DNA from: a virus
Taxonomy: Duplodnaviria; Caudoviricetes
DNA length: 63,073 nucleotides
Reading direction: 5' to 3' (one strand)
Virus record (IMG/VR): IMGVR_UViG_3300043449_000393
Coordinates: 1 to 63,073 of that record
Shown here: positions 2,883-46,764 of the stretch, piece after piece
How positions within the stretch are numbered: the stretch's first letter is position 1
Layout of the letters: the number at the start of each line of letters is the position of its first letter
Notes under the pieces: model-generated
Database searches by the model: none
What the model was told of the DNA's origin: nothing
Seen by the model: only the letters and a program-made list of their open reading frames with translations
Position numbers and translations under genes: made by a program

Positions 2883-3890
2883 TCAGGAGGCAGAGCCAAC
2901 TTGAGCGACGACCAAGGCTTGAGGTTTCACAACCTTGCGGCCATACACAGCCAGACCACGGACGATGTCGCCGAAGTCAGTCTGGTTACGCAGAGGCTCA
3001 GTCTTGTTGATGGTCATGGCGAAAGACGTAGCAGCCTTTGTACCAGCGATCATCGTACGACGTGCCTTAGCACCAGACACAGCGCCGCCTGTGGAAGTAG
3101 CGGACAAGCCAGCCACCAGAGCCTTACCGGCTTCGCCTTTTGGCAGCAGGTTCGACACGTACACAGAGAAGCGATCCAACATACCGATCTTGCCGGTACG
3201 GATGGTGCTGGACTGGTCGCCAGTGAAGTACGCCTGAGCGATGCTAGATTGCATCAACAGGTGACGATCGTAGGGCGACAAGATCAAGAAGCGACCTTCT
3301 TCAGGCACGTTCTGCTCGTCCAGCACGGTGGACATGCGCAAGATGGCCTTGAGCACGTTCTCGGGAGTGGCTTGGTCGATAGGGGTGGTGTCTGTACCCA
3401 AGTTGTAGGCAGCAGAGATAGCACCGGCAGTAGCGCCTTCGTTGGCAGCGGCAGGGCCTTCGGTCACGAAGCTGTTGAAGAACACTTCGTTTTCGATGGC
3501 GATCTTCAGTTGCTTGGCAGCGTCTTCGGTGAACATGTTCATCAAAGCGATGTCAGACTGATAAGCCAGCACGTCGTTGACTTGCACGCCGAAATACTTG
3601 CCCTTGTTCACTTGCATATCTTGGAAGATAGGAGTGGGGACTTCGTAGGACAGGCTTTGGCCAACGGTGTAGTCGCTGATGCTGATCGAAGGAGCCAAGC
3701 GGATGCGAACGGTGTCGCCTTGGTTCTTCAACTCGCCTTCGTAGTCAGTGTTAGTGACTTCGGACAGCATGGTGTTCTGGTAGAACTTGGCCAGCAGCTT
3801 GCCAGACCACAGGGTCGGGATAAAAGCGCCAGAGTACGAAGGGTTGGTGTCAAATGCACCAGAGCCCGTGACAGGATAAACAGCAGCCAT
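2883..3890 (-). CDS. Major capsid protein (P22 coat-like, HK97 fold)
   Basis: FIPTLWSGKLL, NTDYEGELKNQGDTVRI and DIVRGLAVYGRKVVKP motifs; follows the scaffold gene; followed by a terminator. Confidence 0.92.
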   Translation of the reverse strand: MAAVYPVTGSGAFDTNPSYSGAFIPTLWSGKLLAKFYQNTMLSEVTNTDYEGELKNQGDTVRIRLAPSISISDYTVGQSLSYEVPTPIFQDMQVNKGKYFGVQVNDVLAYQSDIALMNMFTEDAAKQLKIAIENEVFFNSFVTEGPAAANEGATAGAISAAYNLGTDTTPIDQATPENVLKAILRMSTVLDEQNVPEEGRFLILSPYDRHLLMQSSIAQAYFTGDQSSTIRTGKIGMLDRFSVYVSNLLPKGEAGKALVAGLSATSTGGAVSGAKARRTMIAGTKAATSFAMTINKTEPLRNQTDFGDIVRGLAVYGRKVVKPQALVVAQVGSAS

Positions 3891-37173: not shown

Positions 37174-37428
37174 TCAGCACTTCCACGCACGCAACGACTT
37201 GTTGATGCGGCTGTTGGGGTCGTTGGCAGTTTTGGCGCTGGTCAACTTCTCCTTCATGCCTTCCATTCTGGCACAAAAAGAGTCCTTGCGGGGACCACCT
37301 TCGGGTTGAGGAGCCTTGAGTCCCGGCTTGCCGGGGTTAGCTTTATTGTAGGAGGCACGCCCTTTGGCGTTGAGCCCACCCTTGGGGTCTTTGCCTTCTT
37401 TGCGTGTCCATGCAGGTGTCTTAGCCAT
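37174..37428 (-). CDS. Small basic conserved phage protein (DUF6321-like)
   Basis: GGLNAKGRAS, SFCARM, SRINKSLRAWKC. Confidence 0.75.
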   Translation of the reverse strand: MAKTPAWTRKEGKDPKGGLNAKGRASYNKANPGKPGLKAPQPEGGPRKDSFCARMEGMKEKLTSAKTANDPNSRINKSLRAWKC

Positions 37429-40400
37429 TAGATTTGCTCCTCAACGAATCGTTTGTTTGCCTTGTTGAACTGTACACCATCAACGACTTGCCGCTCACGC
37501 TTGGCTTGAGACTGTGGAGCCTTAAGCAATTCAGACAGTGGTTGGCGAGTGTAGCCGTTCTTGACTCTGGCTTCCTGCAGCTTTGCCCACGCATCGCGAG
37601 CTTCAGCCGTAGACTCACCAGCGCGGATGGCCTTGATGTAGTCAGCCTTGACCTTGGTAGACCGGTCTTGGTAGAACTGGTTCATCTCCAGCGTGTTCTG
37701 CTGGCGTTCCATTATCACGGACTGCTGGACTGGCTGAATACCCATGGCCTGCACAACAGCTTCCCAAGCACTGACCTCCGACGCTGGCAGTACTATGTCA
37801 CCGTTACGGCGTGTCATTCCTTGCGTGGAAATGCGGTAAGCCTTGGCGGCGTCACCCAGACCCTTGGGGAGAACTTGCTCCATGCCCTTGTACCATTCAC
37901 CGCTGAGCATCTGGCCGAGGCCGTCAGCCACACGAGCGGCCATACCAACTGGAGCGCCGCCCAGCAAAGTACCAGCAGCCTCAATCACGCCGGACTTGGT
38001 AGTCAGGTCAGCTTGGCTGAACGGCATGATGGACAGCATGTTGCCTGCGCCCACTTTGCCAGAGATGTCCACACCAGCCAGCGTCGGAGCACCGCGCATG
38101 ATCAAGTTGGCCATGTCCTCGTCGCCGATAAACTTGCGCAACTCAGCTGTGACATCCAATGGATCGTCGTCATCACCGAACAGAGCTCCGATAGCCCAAG
38201 CAATCGCGGAGTAGCCGGGCAAGCCCATGGCACCAGCCAGCAATGCAGTGTGGCCAAGTGAGTAGGCCAGAGCCTTGGTAGCTGCGAGTTTTTCTTTGCT
38301 GTCAAAGCCAGCGTCCTTGAGCAGCTTGGCGTAGTACGTCAGCTGAATCAACTGGAACTTGCGGAACTGCAACGCCACCTTGCCGACTGGATTGTTGAAG
38401 AATCGTGGGGCGTTGAACGCCGAGTAGTCACCATGGGTCTCAGTCAGGATGCGGTCAGCGTAGTTGATGGCGGCTTCTTTGTCACCAGTCTTGGCCAACT
38501 CCAAACGGTATGCAGCCATGGCTGTGGACAAGCGGTTGATAGATTCAACCTTCTGCACGGCAACACGCAAGAACTTATCGACCTTGTTCCAGCCTTTGCT
38601 GAACGCGCTATCGCCGTCGATCTTGAACTCGCCCAGTTCGGTCTCCAAGCCAATGTCGATCTTGCCTCGATTGGCCAGCTCTTGGATGGCGTCGCGCACG
38701 TCGGCAGGAACCTTGCTAAAGTCAAACTGCTGGTCGTACCGAGCAGACTTCATAACGTTGCCCAGCTGGCTGTACGCTGTGAACAACGCAGTGGAGGTCT
38801 TGGTGTAATCGTGGCGACCGGCCATGGCTGGAACCGACATCATCCAAGGCTGTGTCAAGTTCTGCATGTAGTACGCAGGGCTTGTGGCCAAGAAGTAGAT
38901 CGAGCTTAGGCGCGTGACCTTGCTGATAGCTGGAATAGGCTTGACGTCCAACGATGAGTCGTATCGGCGCGTGATCTCATTCAGAATTTCTGACTTGCGG
39001 TTCAAGTCACCGCTGCCAGCGTTTTCCTCTTTGCGCATGGCCTGAATCACGTCTTGCACCTGTGGGTTGTACTCCACGGACGCCACGAAATTGGCATCAG
39101 CGCGACCCTGAGAGGCAAACGAGCGCAGCATGTCGATCTCACCAGACACACCACGGCGACGCATCTCTGACTTACGAGCGCTACCTTCGGCCAAAGCCTG
39201 CAGGTACATGTCACTGACCATGCGTTGAATCTGAGCTGCGCCTTTGTCGCCAGCGTTGGCCTTGGCGTCTGCCATAGCACGCAGTCGGGTAATTGCGCCA
39301 AGTGAGTCACGGCTACCGAACAACTCTTTGTCAGCAACAGAACGCTCTTTGAACGCAACCGTGCCGCCGTTAAAATGGCCTTGGGCGGTCAACTGGTCTG
39401 CCAAATTGCGAGCTTCATTCTTGGTCTCAGTGAAACTCACGTGGTAGTGGTCTGGGTCTTTCTCCAGACGAGACAGCAGTTTAGTGTCGTTGGCAGCCTT
39501 GGCAGCAATGTACTCTTTGGACTTGGCCACAACAACATGGTCGCCGAAGCGCTTGATTGGAGCGTACGGGATGCCCTCACGAATCTTGAACAGTCGAGCA
39601 AATCGCTTCAGGTCGTTGGCCTTCTCTTTGACCAACTTGGCTTTCTTCAGTGGATCAGTCTCGGCGGCAATGCGAGCGTCGTACTCGGATGTGGCGTAGT
39701 CCACCACAGCCTTCTTCTTGGCCGACAACATCTTGTCACCGTGGGCAAAGATAGCCTTGGCATACGCTTGAGCCTTCGGGCCCAGTGCGTTGAACATCGC
39801 AGCCATCTTAGGGTCAGCCTTAAAGGTGCCCTTGTCGTAGCCCCACTTGCCGGTGCGGGTGGACTCAAAGAGGAACTGGTTGACGCTGTTGGGGCCGTCG
39901 CCTTTGTTGGCTTCTTCGATGGTTGCGTACATGTCAGCAACGCGCTCGACTTCGCGCTCCAAGGAACGAGCCTTGGTATCACGCTTGGCCAACAGGCTTT
40001 CAAACGTAGCGGCAGACTTGATGCCGACATCCACAGCTCGCTTGATGAGATCGCTGGTAAACACCACGCGGTCCAAACCCTGACGAACCCAGTCGCCGAT
40101 GGTGTTGATGCTGTCACTCACAGGCTTTTGGGCCTGCTCAGGCAGCTTGGAGACGGCCTTGTTTACTTGGGCTTGTCGGCTGGCTCGAGAAACTGCGCCA
40201 ACAGGCTGCGTGCCTTGCTGTCCAGCTTGAACTTGTCCTGACTGAGCACCTTGCTGGGCACCTTGGGCGCGTTGGTAGTTTGTGGCTTTGACTTGTTCAT
40301 GTGCTTTCTCCATAAAAGCGTGTGTTGCTGGCAGGTTATCACGGAGGAAATCCATGCCGCCGTTCATGTTTGAGAAAGCCCACACCTGTGCAAAGACTTC

Positions 40401-43400
40401 CTCACGCAGTTCTTGCATAGTCAACGAGCGGTTCTCTGCATCCGACATGTCGAGCGGATAGTTAAGCAAATAGCCGATGGGCGAAGTTTCGCTGCTGTCA
40501 TCAAAGTGGTTCAGGATTTCGTCCATAACGGAACCGGGGCGCAGGGCCAACAGCTCGCCGTTAACACGAGAGACCTTGAACTCCTTGTCGTTAGAGAACT
40601 TACCAGCGCCGCCCTCAACAGCGTCGATGCCATGACCGACTTCGTGGAGCGTAGCAACGGTCGCCAGCTGCTTGTCCTTGAGAATCAAGCCGTTATAGAT
40701 GATGGTGCGTTTGCCGTCAATCACGGTGTAGAGTGCGTCCCACTTTACAGGAGAGAACGTAACCATCCAAGAGTCAATGGCATCAACAGCGTTGCCCATG
40801 CCCATGTTCTGCAACCCACGGATACCGGCGGCAATACCTTCGGAATAGCCCGACAAGTCGTCGAGCGAAGCCTCAACGGACTCAAACTCAGTCCCGCTCT
40901 GGTCAGCAGTGCGGACGCTACGACGCGACTTACGAGCAAACTTGGTCAACTCAGTCTCAACGTCAGCCTTGGTCCAGTTGCCTTCACCGAAGCCGATGAA
41001 TGTGTTCTGCTGAGCCTTGGTCAGGTCAGCGAACTTGGGAGCTTGCGGATACTCAGAAGCGACTACATCCCACGCTTGGGCTGCTTGCTCGGCTTGAGTA
41101 AGGATGACGCTTGGGGCTTGGGCTTTACCTTCTGCGGCAGGCTTTTTGACACGCCGTACTTGTCCGCCCACTCCTTTGCCAGTTTCGGCTTCTGGCTGAA
41201 CAGATACGCTTGTTGGGCTTTTGACTTGAACGGCATTGGTTTTCTCCAGTTTGGCCAGTTTGACGGACAGCTCTTTGGTCTGTCCGCTTTGGAACGCCAC
41301 AGTCACCGTGGTCGCATCGCCATCACCGGCAAAACTCTTGACCACACCAGTACCCAGCTTGGGGTTCATAACGGTGTCGCCAACAGCCAGACCTTTGCGA
41401 TCAGCTTCCAGCTTGGCAGCACGCTCAGCGCGGAACTTGGCAGCCTCAGCTTCTTTGGCAGCGTCTTTTTCCTCAGCAACCACTTGAGCAGCTTCAGTCT
41501 TGGCTTTGCCTTTCTTGCGCTCACCTTTTGTCTTGGTAGCGTTGGCCACCAGAGCTTCGTATTTAGCGGTCAGGCTTTCAATTTGTTCAGCAGCCGCAGC
41601 AGCGGCTTGTGGCAGATTCAGCTGTTGTAGCTCTTCGGCAGCAGTTCGCAGTGCATCAATAGAGTCAGCAATGGCCACCAGATCGACGGCCATTTGGCTA
41701 CCAGCGGTACTGGCTTTTTGCCATTCGCGGGCGTCGTCCATGGTCGAGAACGCTTCACCAGCCTCGCCCTCAAACCCCATGTCCTTCAGCGCAGCGGCCA
41801 AGTCGCCGGATTCGATATTGCCTTTGACGCGATCAATTTGCTCGCTGAGCTCGGACATGCGATCAATATCAGCCTGAGTTGGCTTGCCCTTGGACTCAAG
41901 GCGGCTCAGTTCGCCTTCCAACTTACCCAGTTCGGTAGCGGCTGCTTTTTTGGCAGACTGAATGCCGAGGCTATCAAACACTTGGCTGCGGTCAAACCCC
42001 ATGGATGTCGCAATGTTTGCGAGCAACTCAGGGTTGCCGATCTGTCGCACACGAGACTCTGCAATACCAAAGGACGCAGCGATCTCCTTGGCAATGTTGC
42101 CTTTGTACCCTTCGGGCACAGACCGACGCGCCGTGATGTAGGCGTTCAAGATTTGGCGGTCGCGCTCTTTGTCTTTGGATTTAGACAGGTGCTGCTCGAT
42201 AACAGCTTCCAAGTCGTCCGCCGTAAAGTCAGTCTGGTTGCCGCGCAAGCCAGCTTCGTCTTCCAACACAGCATCAATGCCACCAGCGTTGCCGGTCATC
42301 CGGGCAATGTCAGCGATGTTTGTGATGTCAGTCTCGCCGGGCAGCTTTTCCTGCTTGGGCAGACGCAGAGTCGTGTTGGGCTTTATCGCAGGGGCGGCAC
42401 TTGGGACGGTGGTTGTGGTTTGTCCTTGCGGCGCTGTTTGGATGGTTTGAGAGGCTTGAGTGCCACTTGGGGCTCCAGTAGTTACAGTGGTAGTCGGTTG
42501 GCCGGGGGTGACTGAAAGAATGCCAGCTTCTCGAAGTGGGGCTCCAGTTGTTGGGGTAGCTCCAACCACCGCTCCTGCGACAGGAGCAGCTGGTCCTGCA
42601 TTTCCCACAGTTCCTTGAACGTCAACGCCCCCGACTCCCACGCCTCCTGCAGGCTGCTGTACAGTAGAAACTCCTGTGCCACGTGGACTCCTTGCGCGGA
42701 TGATTTCACCGACTGCCTTACGGGCGTCGACAAGCTTACTACTGGCCAGAGCATTCAGAACAGGCTCAGCTTCTGGCGAAGCAGGATCAATGCCCTTGGA
42801 CACCATGTATTCATAGATGCCGCGAGTACTCTTGGTAGGCTTGATGCCGTGGCCGTTGAGCTCCTCATCCAGTGGACTGAAGATCGAAGGCGCAGCGGGC
42901 TTGGTTTCCGCAGCAGGTGCGGCGGCGGTAGGAGCAACCTCAGCAGGCGTAGCCGCAGGCGCGGTCAGGTCTGTCTCTTGACTGAGAATGGTCGGTGTTA
43001 CCAGCGATGACCCAGCGTAAGCCCCACCAAGCAAATTGGCGTTTGCGTATGGGCTGCCCATCAGCGAAGCTGTATCCAGCCCGGTCAGGGTTCCAGTTCG
43101 TGGCGCTGGAGCTTGTTGCTCCGTGCTTGTGTCTGGCTGGGTCAAGTCAATTTGACCCGACTCAGGGCGTGGGGCTCGAATACCACCAACGCCGCCCATT
43201 AAGCCGCCAAGAGTAGCTCCGCCTACGAACGAGTCCAAATAGCGTTTGTTGGCCTCCTCATTGAACAGTGTCTCGTTGGGGTTGACCGCCATACGACCGG
43301 CGTACTGGTTGATCATTTCTTGGCCGGTTTCGCCAAGGCTTTCGCCCACCGTACCTTCAGCAATTCCAGTGGCTACGCGGCGACCAATACCAGCTTCGCC

Positions 43401-44087
43401 CCGAATAAGTGGTCGCAGGCCACGAGCTGCCATACCCTCAACGCCAACAGCATTTAACGCAGCATAGGGGATACCGCCGAGAGCTGCGGCTCCAAGGTTT
43501 TCACCGCCAGCTTCGCGCTGAGCAGACAGGATGTCACCAACTGCACTGGGATAGCTAGCACCGACAGCACCTGCGGTAGCGGCAGCAGCGCGGCCAAGAC
43601 CCATTCGAGCCGCAGTACCGCCCAAAGCCAAACCGCCAGTCAGACCGCCAGCTACAGCCTCGCCAAGATATGGAAGCGACTGGGCAGCTAGACCACCGGC
43701 ATAGTTAAGGGCGCTGCCAACACCAGTAATGTCACGCCAGTCTTCAACGCCACCGAGCTCACGGGCGCGTTGAGCCGCATAGGCAGCGGCACTTTCATTA
43801 GCAGCACGACGTTGGTCAAACGCTGCGGCTGTGTCCTCCGCACCAACACCTCGAGCAATAGCTCCGCCAAGGCCGAGCAGGTTAGCTTGGTACTGGTCAA
43901 TGCCAGCAGAGATACGACTGCCTGTAAGACCGCGCTTAGCGCCCCCATACCCTATTTCAGCTGCGTAATCGTCTAGTGAAGGGTAGTAGCTTTTGTACTG
44001 TTGGAAGGTGCTTTGCAGAATATCTTCGTCAGTGAGGTTTTCAAGACCGCCATTGGCTTTACGAATATCTGCAATGGAACGTGGCAT
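37428..44087 (-). CDS. Giant polyvalent internal virion/ejection protein, 2219 aa
   Basis: Last of three ejection-type genes; Gly/Ala hydrophobic N-terminus, HTH, Tudor-like domain, HEVGH metallopeptidase, PLxRFG-like YAPIKRFG, conserved helical C-terminus. Confidence 0.85.
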   Translation of the reverse strand: MPRSIADIRKANGGLENLTDEDILQSTFQQYKSYYPSLDDYAAEIGYGGAKRGLTGSRISAGIDQYQANLLGLGGAIARGVGAEDTAAAFDQRRAANESAAAYAAQRARELGGVEDWRDITGVGSALNYAGGLAAQSLPYLGEAVAGGLTGGLALGGTAARMGLGRAAAATAGAVGASYPSAVGDILSAQREAGGENLGAAALGGIPYAALNAVGVEGMAARGLRPLIRGEAGIGRRVATGIAEGTVGESLGETGQEMINQYAGRMAVNPNETLFNEEANKRYLDSFVGGATLGGLMGGVGGIRAPRPESGQIDLTQPDTSTEQQAPAPRTGTLTGLDTASLMGSPYANANLLGGAYAGSSLVTPTILSQETDLTAPAATPAEVAPTAAAPAAETKPAAPSIFSPLDEELNGHGIKPTKSTRGIYEYMVSKGIDPASPEAEPVLNALASSKLVDARKAVGEIIRARSPRGTGVSTVQQPAGGVGVGGVDVQGTVGNAGPAAPVAGAVVGATPTTGAPLREAGILSVTPGQPTTTVTTGAPSGTQASQTIQTAPQGQTTTTVPSAAPAIKPNTTLRLPKQEKLPGETDITNIADIARMTGNAGGIDAVLEDEAGLRGNQTDFTADDLEAVIEQHLSKSKDKERDRQILNAYITARRSVPEGYKGNIAKEIAASFGIAESRVRQIGNPELLANIATSMGFDRSQVFDSLGIQSAKKAAATELGKLEGELSRLESKGKPTQADIDRMSELSEQIDRVKGNIESGDLAAALKDMGFEGEAGEAFSTMDDAREWQKASTAGSQMAVDLVAIADSIDALRTAAEELQQLNLPQAAAAAAEQIESLTAKYEALVANATKTKGERKKGKAKTEAAQVVAEEKDAAKEAEAAKFRAERAAKLEADRKGLAVGDTVMNPKLGTGVVKSFAGDGDATTVTVAFQSGQTKELSVKLAKLEKTNAVQVKSPTSVSVQPEAETGKGVGGQVRRVKKPAAEGKAQAPSVILTQAEQAAQAWDVVASEYPQAPKFADLTKAQQNTFIGFGEGNWTKADVETELTKFARKSRRSVRTADQSGTEFESVEASLDDLSGYSEGIAAGIRGLQNMGMGNAVDAIDSWMVTFSPVKWDALYTVIDGKRTIIYNGLILKDKQLATVATLHEVGHGIDAVEGGAGKFSNDKEFKVSRVNGELLALRPGSVMDEILNHFDDSSETSPIGYLLNYPLDMSDAENRSLTMQELREEVFAQVWAFSNMNGGMDFLRDNLPATHAFMEKAHEQVKATNYQRAQGAQQGAQSGQVQAGQQGTQPVGAVSRASRQAQVNKAVSKLPEQAQKPVSDSINTIGDWVRQGLDRVVFTSDLIKRAVDVGIKSAATFESLLAKRDTKARSLEREVERVADMYATIEEANKGDGPNSVNQFLFESTRTGKWGYDKGTFKADPKMAAMFNALGPKAQAYAKAIFAHGDKMLSAKKKAVVDYATSEYDARIAAETDPLKKAKLVKEKANDLKRFARLFKIREGIPYAPIKRFGDHVVVAKSKEYIAAKAANDTKLLSRLEKDPDHYHVSFTETKNEARNLADQLTAQGHFNGGTVAFKERSVADKELFGSRDSLGAITRLRAMADAKANAGDKGAAQIQRMVSDMYLQALAEGSARKSEMRRRGVSGEIDMLRSFASQGRADANFVASVEYNPQVQDVIQAMRKEENAGSGDLNRKSEILNEITRRYDSSLDVKPIPAISKVTRLSSIYFLATSPAYYMQNLTQPWMMSVPAMAGRHDYTKTSTALFTAYSQLGNVMKSARYDQQFDFSKVPADVRDAIQELANRGKIDIGLETELGEFKIDGDSAFSKGWNKVDKFLRVAVQKVESINRLSTAMAAYRLELAKTGDKEAAINYADRILTETHGDYSAFNAPRFFNNPVGKVALQFRKFQLIQLTYYAKLLKDAGFDSKEKLAATKALAYSLGHTALLAGAMGLPGYSAIAWAIGALFGDDDDPLDVTAELRKFIGDEDMANLIMRGAPTLAGVDISGKVGAGNMLSIMPFSQADLTTKSGVIEAAGTLLGGAPVGMAARVADGLGQMLSGEWYKGMEQVLPKGLGDAAKAYRISTQGMTRRNGDIVLPASEVSAWEAVVQAMGIQPVQQSVIMERQQNTLEMNQFYQDRSTKVKADYIKAIRAGESTAEARDAWAKLQEARVKNGYTRQPLSELLKAPQSQAKRERQVVDGVQFNKANKRFVEEQI
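40163..40300 (-). CDS. Nested +1-frame ORF D, 45 aa, basic
   Basis: GGAG-N7-ATG; MNKSKPQTTNAPKVPSKVLSQDKFKLDSKARSLLAQFLEPADKPK. Confidence 0.55.
   Translation of the reverse strand: MNKSKPQTTNAPKVPSKVLSQDKFKLDSKARSLLAQFLEPADKPK
41063..41236 (-). CDS. Nested +1-frame ORF C, 57 aa, MPFKS-type small basic protein
   Basis: GGAG-N7-ATG; MPFKSKAQQAYLFSQKPKLAKEWADKYGVSKSLPQKVK... Confidence 0.75.
   Translation of the reverse strand: MPFKSKAQQAYLFSQKPKLAKEWADKYGVSKSLPQKVKPKPQASSLLKPSKQPKRGM
42383..42466 (-). CDS. Nested +1-frame ORF B, 27 aa, basic
   Basis: GGAG-N6-GTG; MALKPLKPSKQRRKDKPQPPSQVPPLR. Confidence 0.5.
   Translation of the reverse strand: MALKPLKPSKQRRKDKPQPPSQVPPLR
42482..42682 (-). 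CDS. Nested +1-frame ORF A, 66 aa, acidic and helical
   Basis: AAGGAG-N5-GTG; MAQEFLLYSSLQEAWESGALTFKELWEMQDQLL... Confidence 0.65.
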   Translation of the reverse strand: MAQEFLLYSSLQEAWESGALTFKELWEMQDQLLLSQERWLELPQQLEPHFEKLAFFQSPPANRLPL

Positions 44088-46347: not shown

Positions 46348-46764
46348 TTACTCCTTGCGCAGCCACCGACAAGTGTCAGGCCGCATAACCAAAACGTGCA
46401 TGTCGGCACCCGGTGCGCCGTCCTTCATCACAAACTCTTCCTCAAACCCGAGGTGTTTGTCGAATGCCAGTATTTTAGGCTCATTTGACGGAACCATGCC
46501 AGTCAATCTTTTCAGGCCACAGTGGCGGAACGCGTAGTCGCACACCGCTTGGAACAGCGGGACGATCTGTTTGGTCTGCCGAGCGATGGCAATGTGACAT
46601 GTGGCGTTGGCCCCATTGTAGTTGTTGATGACCACTCCGGCCAAGACATCGTCACCACTCATAACGCCAATGGCGTAGAAGCTGCCCCAGTCCGCGTTCT
46701 GGTCGACCTGCTCGGCGACCCATGCACCGATACGTTCTTTCTGGTCGTAGACAAGATGAGGCAT
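46348..46764 (-). CDS. GNAT acetyltransferase-like virion assembly protein
   Basis: YAFRHCGLKRLTG-V-SNE...HLGFEEE; typical position before ejection genes. Confidence 0.75.
   Translation of the reverse strand: MPHLVYDQKERIGAWVAEQVDQNADWGSFYAIGVMSGDDVLAGVVINNYNGANATCHIAIARQTKQIVPLFQAVCDYAFRHCGLKRLTGMVPSNEPKILAFDKHLGFEEEFVMKDGAPGADMHVLVMRPDTCRWLRKE

Follow-up and report, generated by a model that had tools for sequence, protein, structure and literature searches.

A small phage gene probably nested in the +1 frame of a giant virion-protein gene

The DNA analysed here (the window) is a 63,073-nucleotide stretch of a Caudoviricetes virus. The open reading frame (ORF) at 41063-41236 on its minus strand is likely to be a genuine second gene inside a giant virion-protein gene, a reading that we take together with the explanation of its origin given below and that draws on the ORF call, on homologues and on the substitution pattern. 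The nested gene, called C, consists of 57 codons and a stop. Its position, its length of 57 aa and its first residues, MPFKSKAQ, agree with those given in the earlier note, which had been made from the sequence alone. The ORF begins 2851 nt into the host gene (37428-44087, minus strand); division of this offset by 3 leaves a remainder of 1, which places the ORF in the +1 frame relative to the giant ORF.

The host gene, the last of a late minus-strand operon, encodes a 2219-residue giant protein of the virion or ejection type. Its C-terminal residues 1503-2176 match phrog_10089, ‘DarB-like antirestriction’ (E = 8.6e-55), and its upstream neighbours encode a virion structural protein, tail fibre proteins and an internal virion protein. 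Since 30 ORFs of at least 30 aa overlap a 2.5-kb stretch round the site, ORF length by itself is uninformative, and homology is what exceeds chance.

A family of small basic phage proteins

The peptide is a member of an extensive family of very small basic phage proteins that is related to phrog_1375. Searched against a library of 5.8 billion entries, it matches 12 small proteins (43-80 aa) with E-values from 8.7e-19 to 1.6e-4, and 309 relatives were confirmed among at least 600 pattern matches in viral contigs. A profile built from 62 members retrieved 4409 cluster representatives at E ≤ 1e-3, 801 of which score at E ≤ 1e-10. The earlier note had named a recurrent family of stand-alone small phage proteins, and these searches bear it out.

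Residues M1, P2, F3, K4, S5, Q8, P17 and A20 are invariant in the 62-row family alignment, the first row of which is the window's peptide, and L33 and P34 are nearly so. The window's peptide fits a size class of about 40-75 aa with a Lys-rich tail. Among the best 150 of the 4409 representatives, 84 are at most 80 aa long, 31 measure 81-150 aa and 35 exceed 150 aa; the motif opens the protein in 105 of these 150. In ten long forms examined (189-980 aa), the domain starts at residue 1 and a long protein follows, and a PHROG scan of ten long in-frame fusions revealed an N-terminal phrog_1375 alone in nine and nothing in one.

The phrog_1375 family (PHROGs v4, no function given) matches the window's peptide over the first helix region only (E = 2.1e-4, residues 3-26 on profile positions 17-40 of 70). 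It is matched by 36 of the 62 members (best E = 2.3e-7), while 26 miss E ≤ 0.001. We found no mention of nesting for phrog_1375 in PHROGs. The family is absent from Pfam, and no Pfam family matches it; in the 150 best representatives, DUF5661 occurs in two, along with three single hits. PF10668 (Phage_terminase, small subunit) was rejected, since its match (17.8 bits, E = 0.0027) falls below the gathering cut-off of 22 and is found in 1 of 62 members at E ≤ 0.1. Membership in PF11450 (DUF3008) was rejected as well, with no match among the 62 members at E ≤ 0.1 or among the 150 best representatives at E ≤ 0.001. The nearest Pfam-labelled Atlas cluster is DUF3008 (score 0.80), a lead only; the N-terminus of DUF3008 is presumably a look-alike of that of the family.

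Searches of 50,697 phage records gave no blastn match for the 2.5 kb round the site. With tblastn the peptide found weak matches (best E = 0.09), which became useful once the loci were read by eye. The available portions of the literature on the motif, DUF3008, overlapping or embedded phage genes and polyvalent proteins contain nothing on the family or its nesting.

The predicted product is a 57-residue protein made of a helix-Pro-helix hairpin of about 38 residues and a disordered Lys/Pro-rich tail. In the AF2 model, obtained from the 62-row alignment with a mean pLDDT of 76, the conserved core (codons 1-38, 41123-41236, minus strand) is predicted to form helices at residues 6-15 and 17-27, with Pro17 between them, followed by an LP..K motif; successive blocks within residues 1-30 reach pLDDT values of 83, 92 and 80. 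The basic tail (codons 39-57, 41066-41122, minus strand) varies in the alignments and is modelled at a pLDDT of 64-68. The 57 residues include no Cys and no hydrophobic signal segment. Foldseek comparison of the model with viral models gave no matches at E ≤ 0.001, and the top rows held only uncharacterised small proteins. The most likely function, suggested tentatively by gene neighbourhood, fusions and charge, may be that of a small head-interior protein.

Free-standing and nested loci

In most phages, the family is encoded by a free-standing gene of the head and packaging module, or forms the N-terminal domain of long Gly/Ala-rich proteins. The earlier note had asked whether homologues exist as independent genes. 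They do: no same-strand ORF of at least 300 aa crosses the small gene in 52 of the 80 viral loci compared, and free copies adjoin portal, large terminase or major head (capsid) genes. For instance, gp8 of the cultured mycobacteriophage Papyrus, a 53-aa hypothetical protein, is encoded directly after the portal gene; tblastn picked it out at E = 7, and the likeness was judged by eye. In three contigs, the small gene lies 5-12 nt past the stop of a giant gene; each of these contigs holds one copy, and no remnant of the host-frame motif was found inside the giant. Family members are also present in phages with no giant gene nearby.

The small gene is nested in 28 of the 80 loci, always in the +1 frame; 15 of the hosts are ORFs of at least 1000 aa, 12 are ORFs of about 400-430 aa and one is doubtful. 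Because the 80 loci are the best of the 309 relatives, selected for resembling the window's clade, they give a biased estimate of the nested share. BLASTP detected no likeness among the three host-gene families. The same nested arrangement is seen in the Flavobacterium phage record MT497067.1 (GC 0.32), which belongs to the cultured ‘elemo’ phages and has Flavobacterium sp. BAL314 as its host. The small gene is missing from the annotation of this record and from that of Synechococcus phage S-CBS2; the family has gone unannotated because gene finders forbid genes within genes. On the peptide tree (62 rows, 40 columns), which is too weak for counting origins, nesting needs five changes, but an AU test does not reject a single nested clade (p = 0.17). 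Among the contigs examined, we found no intermediate in which the small gene separates two parts of a giant gene or which displays the fusion event.

Start signals were compared among the nested loci. ATG is the start codon in all 28 nested copies. In the window, it is the earliest ATG, GTG or TTG after a nested-frame stop located 22 codons upstream; across the nested loci, this stop is 1-43 codons away. A Shine-Dalgarno (SD) sequence, GGAG, is found at 41244-41247 (minus strand), 7 nt 5' of the nested ATG, and is made by the host codons CTG GAG (Leu-Glu), as the earlier note had noticed. The sequence (A)GGAG is kept 6-7 nt before the ATG in the window and in the four relatives closest to it (L002-L005), including those whose host protein differs upstream. 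SD-like sites occur in just 6 of the 28 nested loci, all with a GC content of at least 0.47, and AT-rich nested loci have none. These signals suggest that translation may start independently at an internal GGAG-N7-ATG on the late mRNA.

The same signals bear on programmed frameshifting, in which a +1 slip on the giant mRNA would yield a truncated giant with a basic tail, or a -1 slip from the internal ATG would yield a C-terminal half tagged with MPFKS. Frameshift products such as T7 10A/10B or lambda G/GT have no start of their own, and the alternative frame is entered at a slippery site. The existence of the 35 representatives longer than 150 aa among the best 150, together with the ten long forms that carry the domain at residue 1, would suit such a process, as would the Lys-rich tails of AT-rich loci, which correspond to A-rich runs. 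We nevertheless consider frameshifting quite improbable, and rejected an extension of the T7 or lambda type, given the nested gene's own ATG and SD, the latter kept in the window's clade, and the upstream nested-frame stop. Moreover, no common slippery heptamer was noticed in an unsystematic look, and the tail in the window is not A-rich.

The sequences preceding the nested gene vary. In the window, residues 902-949 of the giant (41241-41384, minus strand) resemble a Tudor domain (PF21196, E = 0.0032, 17.7 bits, below the cut-off of 23.9), and this weak match stops two residues before the nested start, in line with the earlier note, which had the nested gene start where the domain ends. Of the window and L002-L005, only the window, L002 and L005 have the Tudor-like domain ahead of the nested gene, while L003 and L004 carry an unrelated coiled-coil segment upstream of the same nested gene. 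No host of the other two families features a Tudor segment at that place. In the 80 loci, the Tudor stretch of the giant matched nothing outside related giant genes, L002 and L005 being the only matches. The proposal that a Tudor domain and a downstream gene had been absorbed as a unit finds no support, as L003, L004 and the other two host families have the nested gene without the domain. The gene may have entered through stop loss and fusion, or through cassette recombination.

Selection and codon usage in the two frames

Differences between loci were counted by codon position in pairwise comparisons of the window, L002-L005 and L017, pairs with common ancestry that are not independent of one another. 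Outside the overlap, the differences at the three host-frame codon positions amount to 0.416/0.347/0.604 (20481 codon comparisons); within it, they amount to 0.287/0.137/0.099 (415 codon comparisons). When the differences in the latter set are assigned to the nested frame, 119 fall at the wobble position, against 57 and 41 at the others. Along the entire giant gene, host position 3 varies less than position 1 at three places only, one of which is 41267-41088. A similar pattern was observed in 11 distinct hosts of about 400 aa, where the entropy by host codon position drops from 0.84/0.56/1.00 upstream to 0.58/0.34/0.35 in the overlap and rises again to 0.63/0.45/1.09 downstream. Free-standing genes display the periodicity of ordinary coding sequence in the small frame (entropy 0.62/0.49/1.42), and the values for nested copies are 0.72/0.56/0.86. 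Together, these substitution patterns indicate selection on the nested frame.

The same patterns bear on the idea that the nested gene is a fossil, swallowed and no longer expressed, whose conservation reflects recent ancestry or selection at the DNA level, as expected of a recombination patch or an internal regulatory site. The core does sit between host modules that differ among relatives in the five genomes compared (the window and its four closest relatives). Its nucleotide identity is 0.82-0.94 in all 10 pairs, whereas that of the tail falls to 0.37-0.44 between sub-clades, and so sharp an island between mosaic flanks would suit a recombination or regulatory element. A fossil is nonetheless hardly probable: a pure DNA element would show no codon periodicity, whereas differences within the island fall mostly at the nested wobble position, and the nested start, stop and open frame are kept across GC contents of 0.30-0.56 and three host families.

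Codon usage was scored in both frames. In the 38-codon core, the nested frame scores 0.246 bits per codon against 0.137 for the host frame; over all 57 codons, it scores lower than the host frame (0.075 and 0.163), so that the nested frame wins only in the core. The host-frame score of 0.163 is in the lowest 6% of giant-gene windows, and the score of the nested ORF is reached by only 2 of the giant's 204 other +1-frame windows. The host-frame linker that spans the overlap (residues 951-1008, 41064-41237, minus strand) is of low complexity, and its charge differs between hosts. Segments of this kind are confined to nested loci, while 4409 cluster representatives contain the small frame. Given its codon score and the suppressed host wobble, the linker is a putative overprint.

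The relative age of the frames could also be read in the reverse direction, with the host-frame motif original in giant virion proteins and the small ORF born inside it and later escaped. The tree is compatible with monophyly of the nested copies (AU p = 0.17), and the host frame restricts the nested wobble, the entropy of which is 0.86 as against 1.42 in free copies. Such an origin is very improbable, however, since the small frame has a far wider distribution than the low-complexity host-frame segment of varying charge and is found in phages with no giant gene nearby, and since no other likeness was detected among the three host families. Least probable, to the point of being barely credible, is a chance open frame in DNA of 55% GC whose likeness merely mirrors conservation of the host protein: the number of ORFs near the site and host-frame strings that are alike over the small gene in all nested loci would fit it, but free homologues exist without a host, periodicity tracks the small frame, the host wobble is the most conserved position inside the overlap in two host families, and the nested frame stays open in AT-rich phages (GC 0.30-0.38). 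The frame equivalent to that of the host is open in 28/28 nested copies and in 15/40 free copies; the stops in the remaining 25/40 contradict the suggestion, raised as a test in the earlier note, that main-frame conservation explains the similarity.

The evidence therefore supports the small frame as the probable ancestral one and the host-frame linker as the overprint. This had been proposed in the earlier note and agrees with the low variation of the host wobble in the overlap, with the restriction of the host-frame segment to nested loci and with the codon score of the core. The giant ORF would have come to read through the small gene, giving rise to a young host-frame overprint.

Known overlapping genes and biological meaning

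The gene Rz1 lies in the +1 frame, and Rz1-like o-spanins are defined by a lipoprotein signal with a lipobox Cys. The arrangement described here is similar in that a small phage gene with its own start lies wholly within a larger gene of the same strand, in the +1 frame. Lambda Rz/Rz1-type spanin genes feature embedded, overlapped and separated architectures (Kongari et al. 2018, PMC6139136), and the occurrence of one gene in both embedded and separate form, depending on the phage, is a further likeness. In contrast, the nested protein has no signal peptide and no Cys, hence no lipobox, and the gene around it encodes a virion-type protein of 2219 aa at the end of a structural operon rather than an i-spanin. 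In addition, one small family is found here in three host families without detectable similarity, and of the two genes the small one appears to be the older. An embedded o-spanin was thus rejected: the +1 embedding is present, but the lipobox Cys and an i-spanin host in a lysis cassette are not.

In viral overprinting, the ancestral frame is judged by phylogenetic spread and codon usage (Pavesi 2021, PMC8227390; Pavesi et al. 2013, PMC3744397); here, too, two proteins would derive from one DNA stretch, and the ancestral frame was judged by the same criteria. The direction differs, as the classic case is a new short ORF inside an old gene, whereas here the short ORF appears to be old and the linker of the long gene the newcomer. 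Polyvalent proteins of phages, reportedly described by Iyer, Burroughs, Anand, de Souza and Aravind in 2017, offer another likeness, as the host in the window is giant, mosaic and probably carried in the virion, and its modules vary among close relatives. To our knowledge, the concept of polyvalent proteins does not extend to genes that are concealed in the linkers and translated on their own.

The small protein may be produced late in infection together with the giant and be packaged alongside it and the DNA, as gene neighbourhood, fusions and charge suggest. Possibly, although this is a tentative proposal, giant virion genes grow by engulfing small head-module genes that stood alone, an overprinting in reverse in which the small gene stays alive in the +1 frame and its conserved DNA serves as a homology patch for module swaps. 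Hidden genes would then be both cargo and joints, and the window would have at least two joints, the nested gene and, at 42482-42682, a conserved ORF with a GTG start. Should the peptide be made, many phage giant genes would encode at least one extra protein, and a very common head-module microprotein would become a target of study. Gene overlaps could then also form when a large gene comes to read through an older small gene, besides forming by the birth of a new ORF within an old gene, and a conserved island between mosaic flanks would provide a testable handle on module exchange in polyvalent virion proteins.

The nested gene and its protein family

On the minus strand of the window, a 57-codon ORF (nested ORF C, 41063-41236) lies within the 2219-codon ORF of a giant virion-type protein (37428-44087, minus strand). 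The small gene begins 2851 nt from the start of the giant gene and is therefore in the +1 frame. Its ATG is the earliest start codon past a nested-frame stop 22 codons upstream, and a GGAG (41244-41247), provided by the host codons Leu-Glu, lies 7 nt ahead of it. A Tudor-like match in the giant protein (PF21196, residues 902-949), which is weak (17.7 bits against a Pfam cut-off of 23.9), stops two residues ahead of the nested start. The start string, the Tudor edge and the Leu-Glu GGAG described in the earlier note were all correct, as verified from the ORF, its translation and the Pfam position. ORF length alone is no evidence for the gene, since 30 ORFs of at least 30 aa overlap the 2.5-kb stretch around it. 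The giant is the final gene of the late operon and is preceded by tail fibre, internal virion protein and virion structural protein genes. An acyl-CoA N-acyltransferase-like gene (46348-46764, minus strand; phrog_4470, E=5.3e-26) is found in this stretch of virion genes and immediately precedes those for the structural protein and the giant.

A word-indexed search of 5.8 billion proteins with the nested peptide yielded 12 matches of 43-80 aa (E 8.7e-19 to 1.6e-4). The alignment of these 12 small proteins matched at least 600 stretches in IMG/VR, of which 309 were confirmed as relatives. A profile built from 62 distinct members retrieved 4409 of 1.84 billion cluster representatives at E<=1e-3, 801 of which also pass E<=1e-10. 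Among the best 150 of the 4409, 84 proteins measure at most 80 aa, 31 measure 81-150 aa and 35 are longer; the motif is at residue 1 in 105. In the ten long forms scanned, in-frame fusions of 189-980 aa, the domain starts at residue 1 and long, often Gly/Ala-rich, glycine-zipper-like sequence comes after it; by eye, these extensions look like the Gly-rich N-terminal part of the giant protein in the window. PHROGs recognised the N-terminal domain alone in nine and nothing in one. Apart from DUF5661, seen in 2 of the best 150 representatives, the extensions matched no PHROG or Pfam family.

The family, here called MPFKSKAQ, has no model in Pfam. PF10668 was discarded as an identity, as its one match among the 62 members is the window's copy, and that falls below cut-off. 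DUF3008, which we took to be similar, was also discarded, being matched in Pfam by none of the 62 members and none of the 150 best representatives. In PHROGs, 36 of the 62 members match phrog_1375 (no function given), and 30 viral 'hypothetical protein' clusters are listed in the ESM Atlas. The AlphaFold2 model (62-row alignment, mean pLDDT 76) has two helices (residues 6-15 and 17-27), followed by a basic tail that is disordered; Foldseek returned no viral model at E<=0.001. A literature search on the motif and on DUF3008 returned nothing, and a wider search on overlapping or embedded phage genes and polyvalent proteins returned nothing on the family.

Nested and free-standing copies

The best 80 of the 309 relatives were all classified by script, and eight loci missed by the motif pattern were read separately (seven free-standing, one nested). 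No same-strand ORF of at least 300 aa covers the small gene in 52 of the 80 loci. The gene is nested in an ORF of at least 1000 aa in 15, in one of about 400-430 aa in 12, and in a 451-aa ORF of GC 0.70 in a single doubtful case (L074). Each of the 28 nested copies is in the +1 frame relative to its host. Flavobacterium phage MT497067.1 (GC 0.32) likewise carries a 42-codon copy, left unannotated, in the +1 frame within a CDS of about 3,694 codons that is annotated as 'structural protein'. The three host families show no BLASTP match among one another, and host C-terminal domains hit different PHROGs (phrog_10089 in the window's type, phrog_32588 in other giants). The hosts of about 400 aa have the portal gene on one side and a 'virion structural protein' gene on the other, where a scaffold gene is usually found.

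Free copies adjoin head and packaging genes. In one setting, they lie between the major head protein gene and a 640-aa portal-position gene, which comes after the large terminase gene and has no PHROG match; in other groups, they are found before or after the large terminase and portal genes. Gp8 of mycobacteriophage Papyrus, a distant family member, is encoded directly after the portal gene. In Synechococcus phage S-CBS2 (NC_015463.1), an unannotated 36-codon family ORF (3501-3611) occupies a gap between annotated genes. A tblastn match in such a gap marks a candidate member in Phage C75C1 (OQ984151.1, about 3501-3572).

In three contigs (L011, L051 and L069), the only copy of the small gene is free, 5-12 nt past the stop of a giant gene encoding about 2580-2640 aa. 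Over its first 100 and last 1200 residues, this giant matches one in which the small gene is nested at residue 807; their middle parts are different. The small gene has moved relative to the same giant family. Free copies just past a giant's stop were also seen in L087 and L088.

Selection on the two reading frames

Host wobble positions coincide with nested second codon positions and nested wobble positions with host first positions, which provides a clean test of the selected frame. We compared pairwise differences in the window's clade (the window, its four closest relatives L002-L005, and L017). Outside the overlap (20481 codon comparisons), values at host positions 1, 2 and 3 are 0.416, 0.347 and 0.604; in the first 38 nested codons, the core (415 comparisons), they are 0.287, 0.137 and 0.099. 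The reversal is complete, though it is not a probability, because the pairs share ancestry. When the whole giant gene was scanned against the four relatives with a 30-codon sliding window, host position 3 fell below position 1 in only three places: 42707-42438, 41267-41088 (the site of nested ORF C) and, weakly, 40307-40068.

The first place surrounds nested ORF A (42482-42682, minus strand; 66 codons, +1 frame, GTG start after AAGGAG), which by its sequence features also looks like a real gene. Nucleotides are conserved over 42438-42707, with host-frame wobble differences down to 0.07-0.19; the window and L002-L005 all retain the SD, the GTG start and the TAA stop, and in +1-frame codon score ORF A ranks within the top three windows of the giant. 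Nested ORF D (40163-40300, minus strand) gives a weaker signal than A and C, with a slight drop over 40068-40307 (host position 3, 0.41-0.57; position 1, 0.46-0.63); the best +1-frame codon score of the giant begins nearby, at 40337.

A second, independent host family was analysed by column entropy in 11 distinct hosts of about 400 aa. Entropies at host positions 1, 2 and 3 are 0.84, 0.56 and 1.00 upstream, 0.58, 0.34 and 0.35 in the overlap, and 0.63, 0.45 and 1.09 downstream, indicating host coding on both sides and dominance of the small frame in the overlap. Over the first 24 small-frame codons, of which 1-8 are partly constrained by the search pattern, entropies are 0.62, 0.49 and 1.42 in 40 free-standing genes and 0.72, 0.56 and 0.86 in 26 nested genes. 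The damped wobble of nested copies is what double coding predicts. The host-equivalent frame is open in 28/28 nested versus 15/40 free copies; the loci of 14 of these 15 have a GC of 0.58-0.66 and that of the other 0.48, while AT-rich free copies have 2-8 stops in this frame.

Nested ORF C scores 0.075 bits per codon in codon usage over its whole length and 0.246 in the core. By comparison, the mean of the other +1-frame windows in the giant is -0.44 (sd 0.22), and only 2/204 reach the score of the nested ORF. Host-frame scores are 0.163 in the overlap, which ranks in the lowest 6% of host-frame windows yet exceeds the nested frame across all 57 codons, and 0.137 in the core. An (A)GGAG is found 6-7 nt ahead of the ATG in the window and L002-L005, including L003 and L004, despite their unrelated upstream host sequence. 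SD-like sites occur in 6/28 nested versus 21/39 free loci. AT-rich nested loci have A-rich leaders and no SD-like site, and we infer putative SD-independent initiation in their hosts.

Origin of the overlap and possible function

The proposal that the nested gene is ancestral and the linker overprinted fits the frame spread, the codon usage of the core and the low-complexity host-frame segment. On this reading, the roles are the opposite of those in classic overprinting (PMC8227390 and PMC3744397). The gene pair is arranged like embedded spanin genes (PMC6139136), but the small protein has neither Cys nor signal peptide and its host is not an i-spanin.

Joint absorption of the Tudor domain and a downstream gene, also proposed in the earlier note, is at odds with the upstream modules. 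The Tudor-like segment precedes the nested gene in the window, L002 and L005, whereas L003 and L004 feature a different, coiled-coil-like module. All ten pairs have nucleotide identities of 0.82-0.94 between positions -15 and +114 relative to the ATG. Over the 285 nt upstream, identity is 0.54-0.59 wherever modules differ, probably about the level of a global alignment of unrelated DNA. L004 and L005, for instance, have an identity of 0.94 in the core and 0.95 downstream of it, against 0.56 upstream. On these alignments, the small gene behaves as an island of conservation bounded by recombination breakpoints rather than as the tail of the Tudor module. Nesting may have one or more origins: the peptide tree requires five changes between nested and free states, but the AU test does not reject one nested clade (p=0.17).

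An assembly role and portal binding are candidate alternatives for the function of the small protein. Our preferred guess, a tentative one, is a predicted head-interior protein that would be packed with DNA and internal proteins, because the gene is steadily placed in head, packaging or virion modules, the domain is also N-terminal in long Gly/Ala-rich proteins, the gene is linked to giant virion proteins, within or just after them, and the tail of the small protein is basic.
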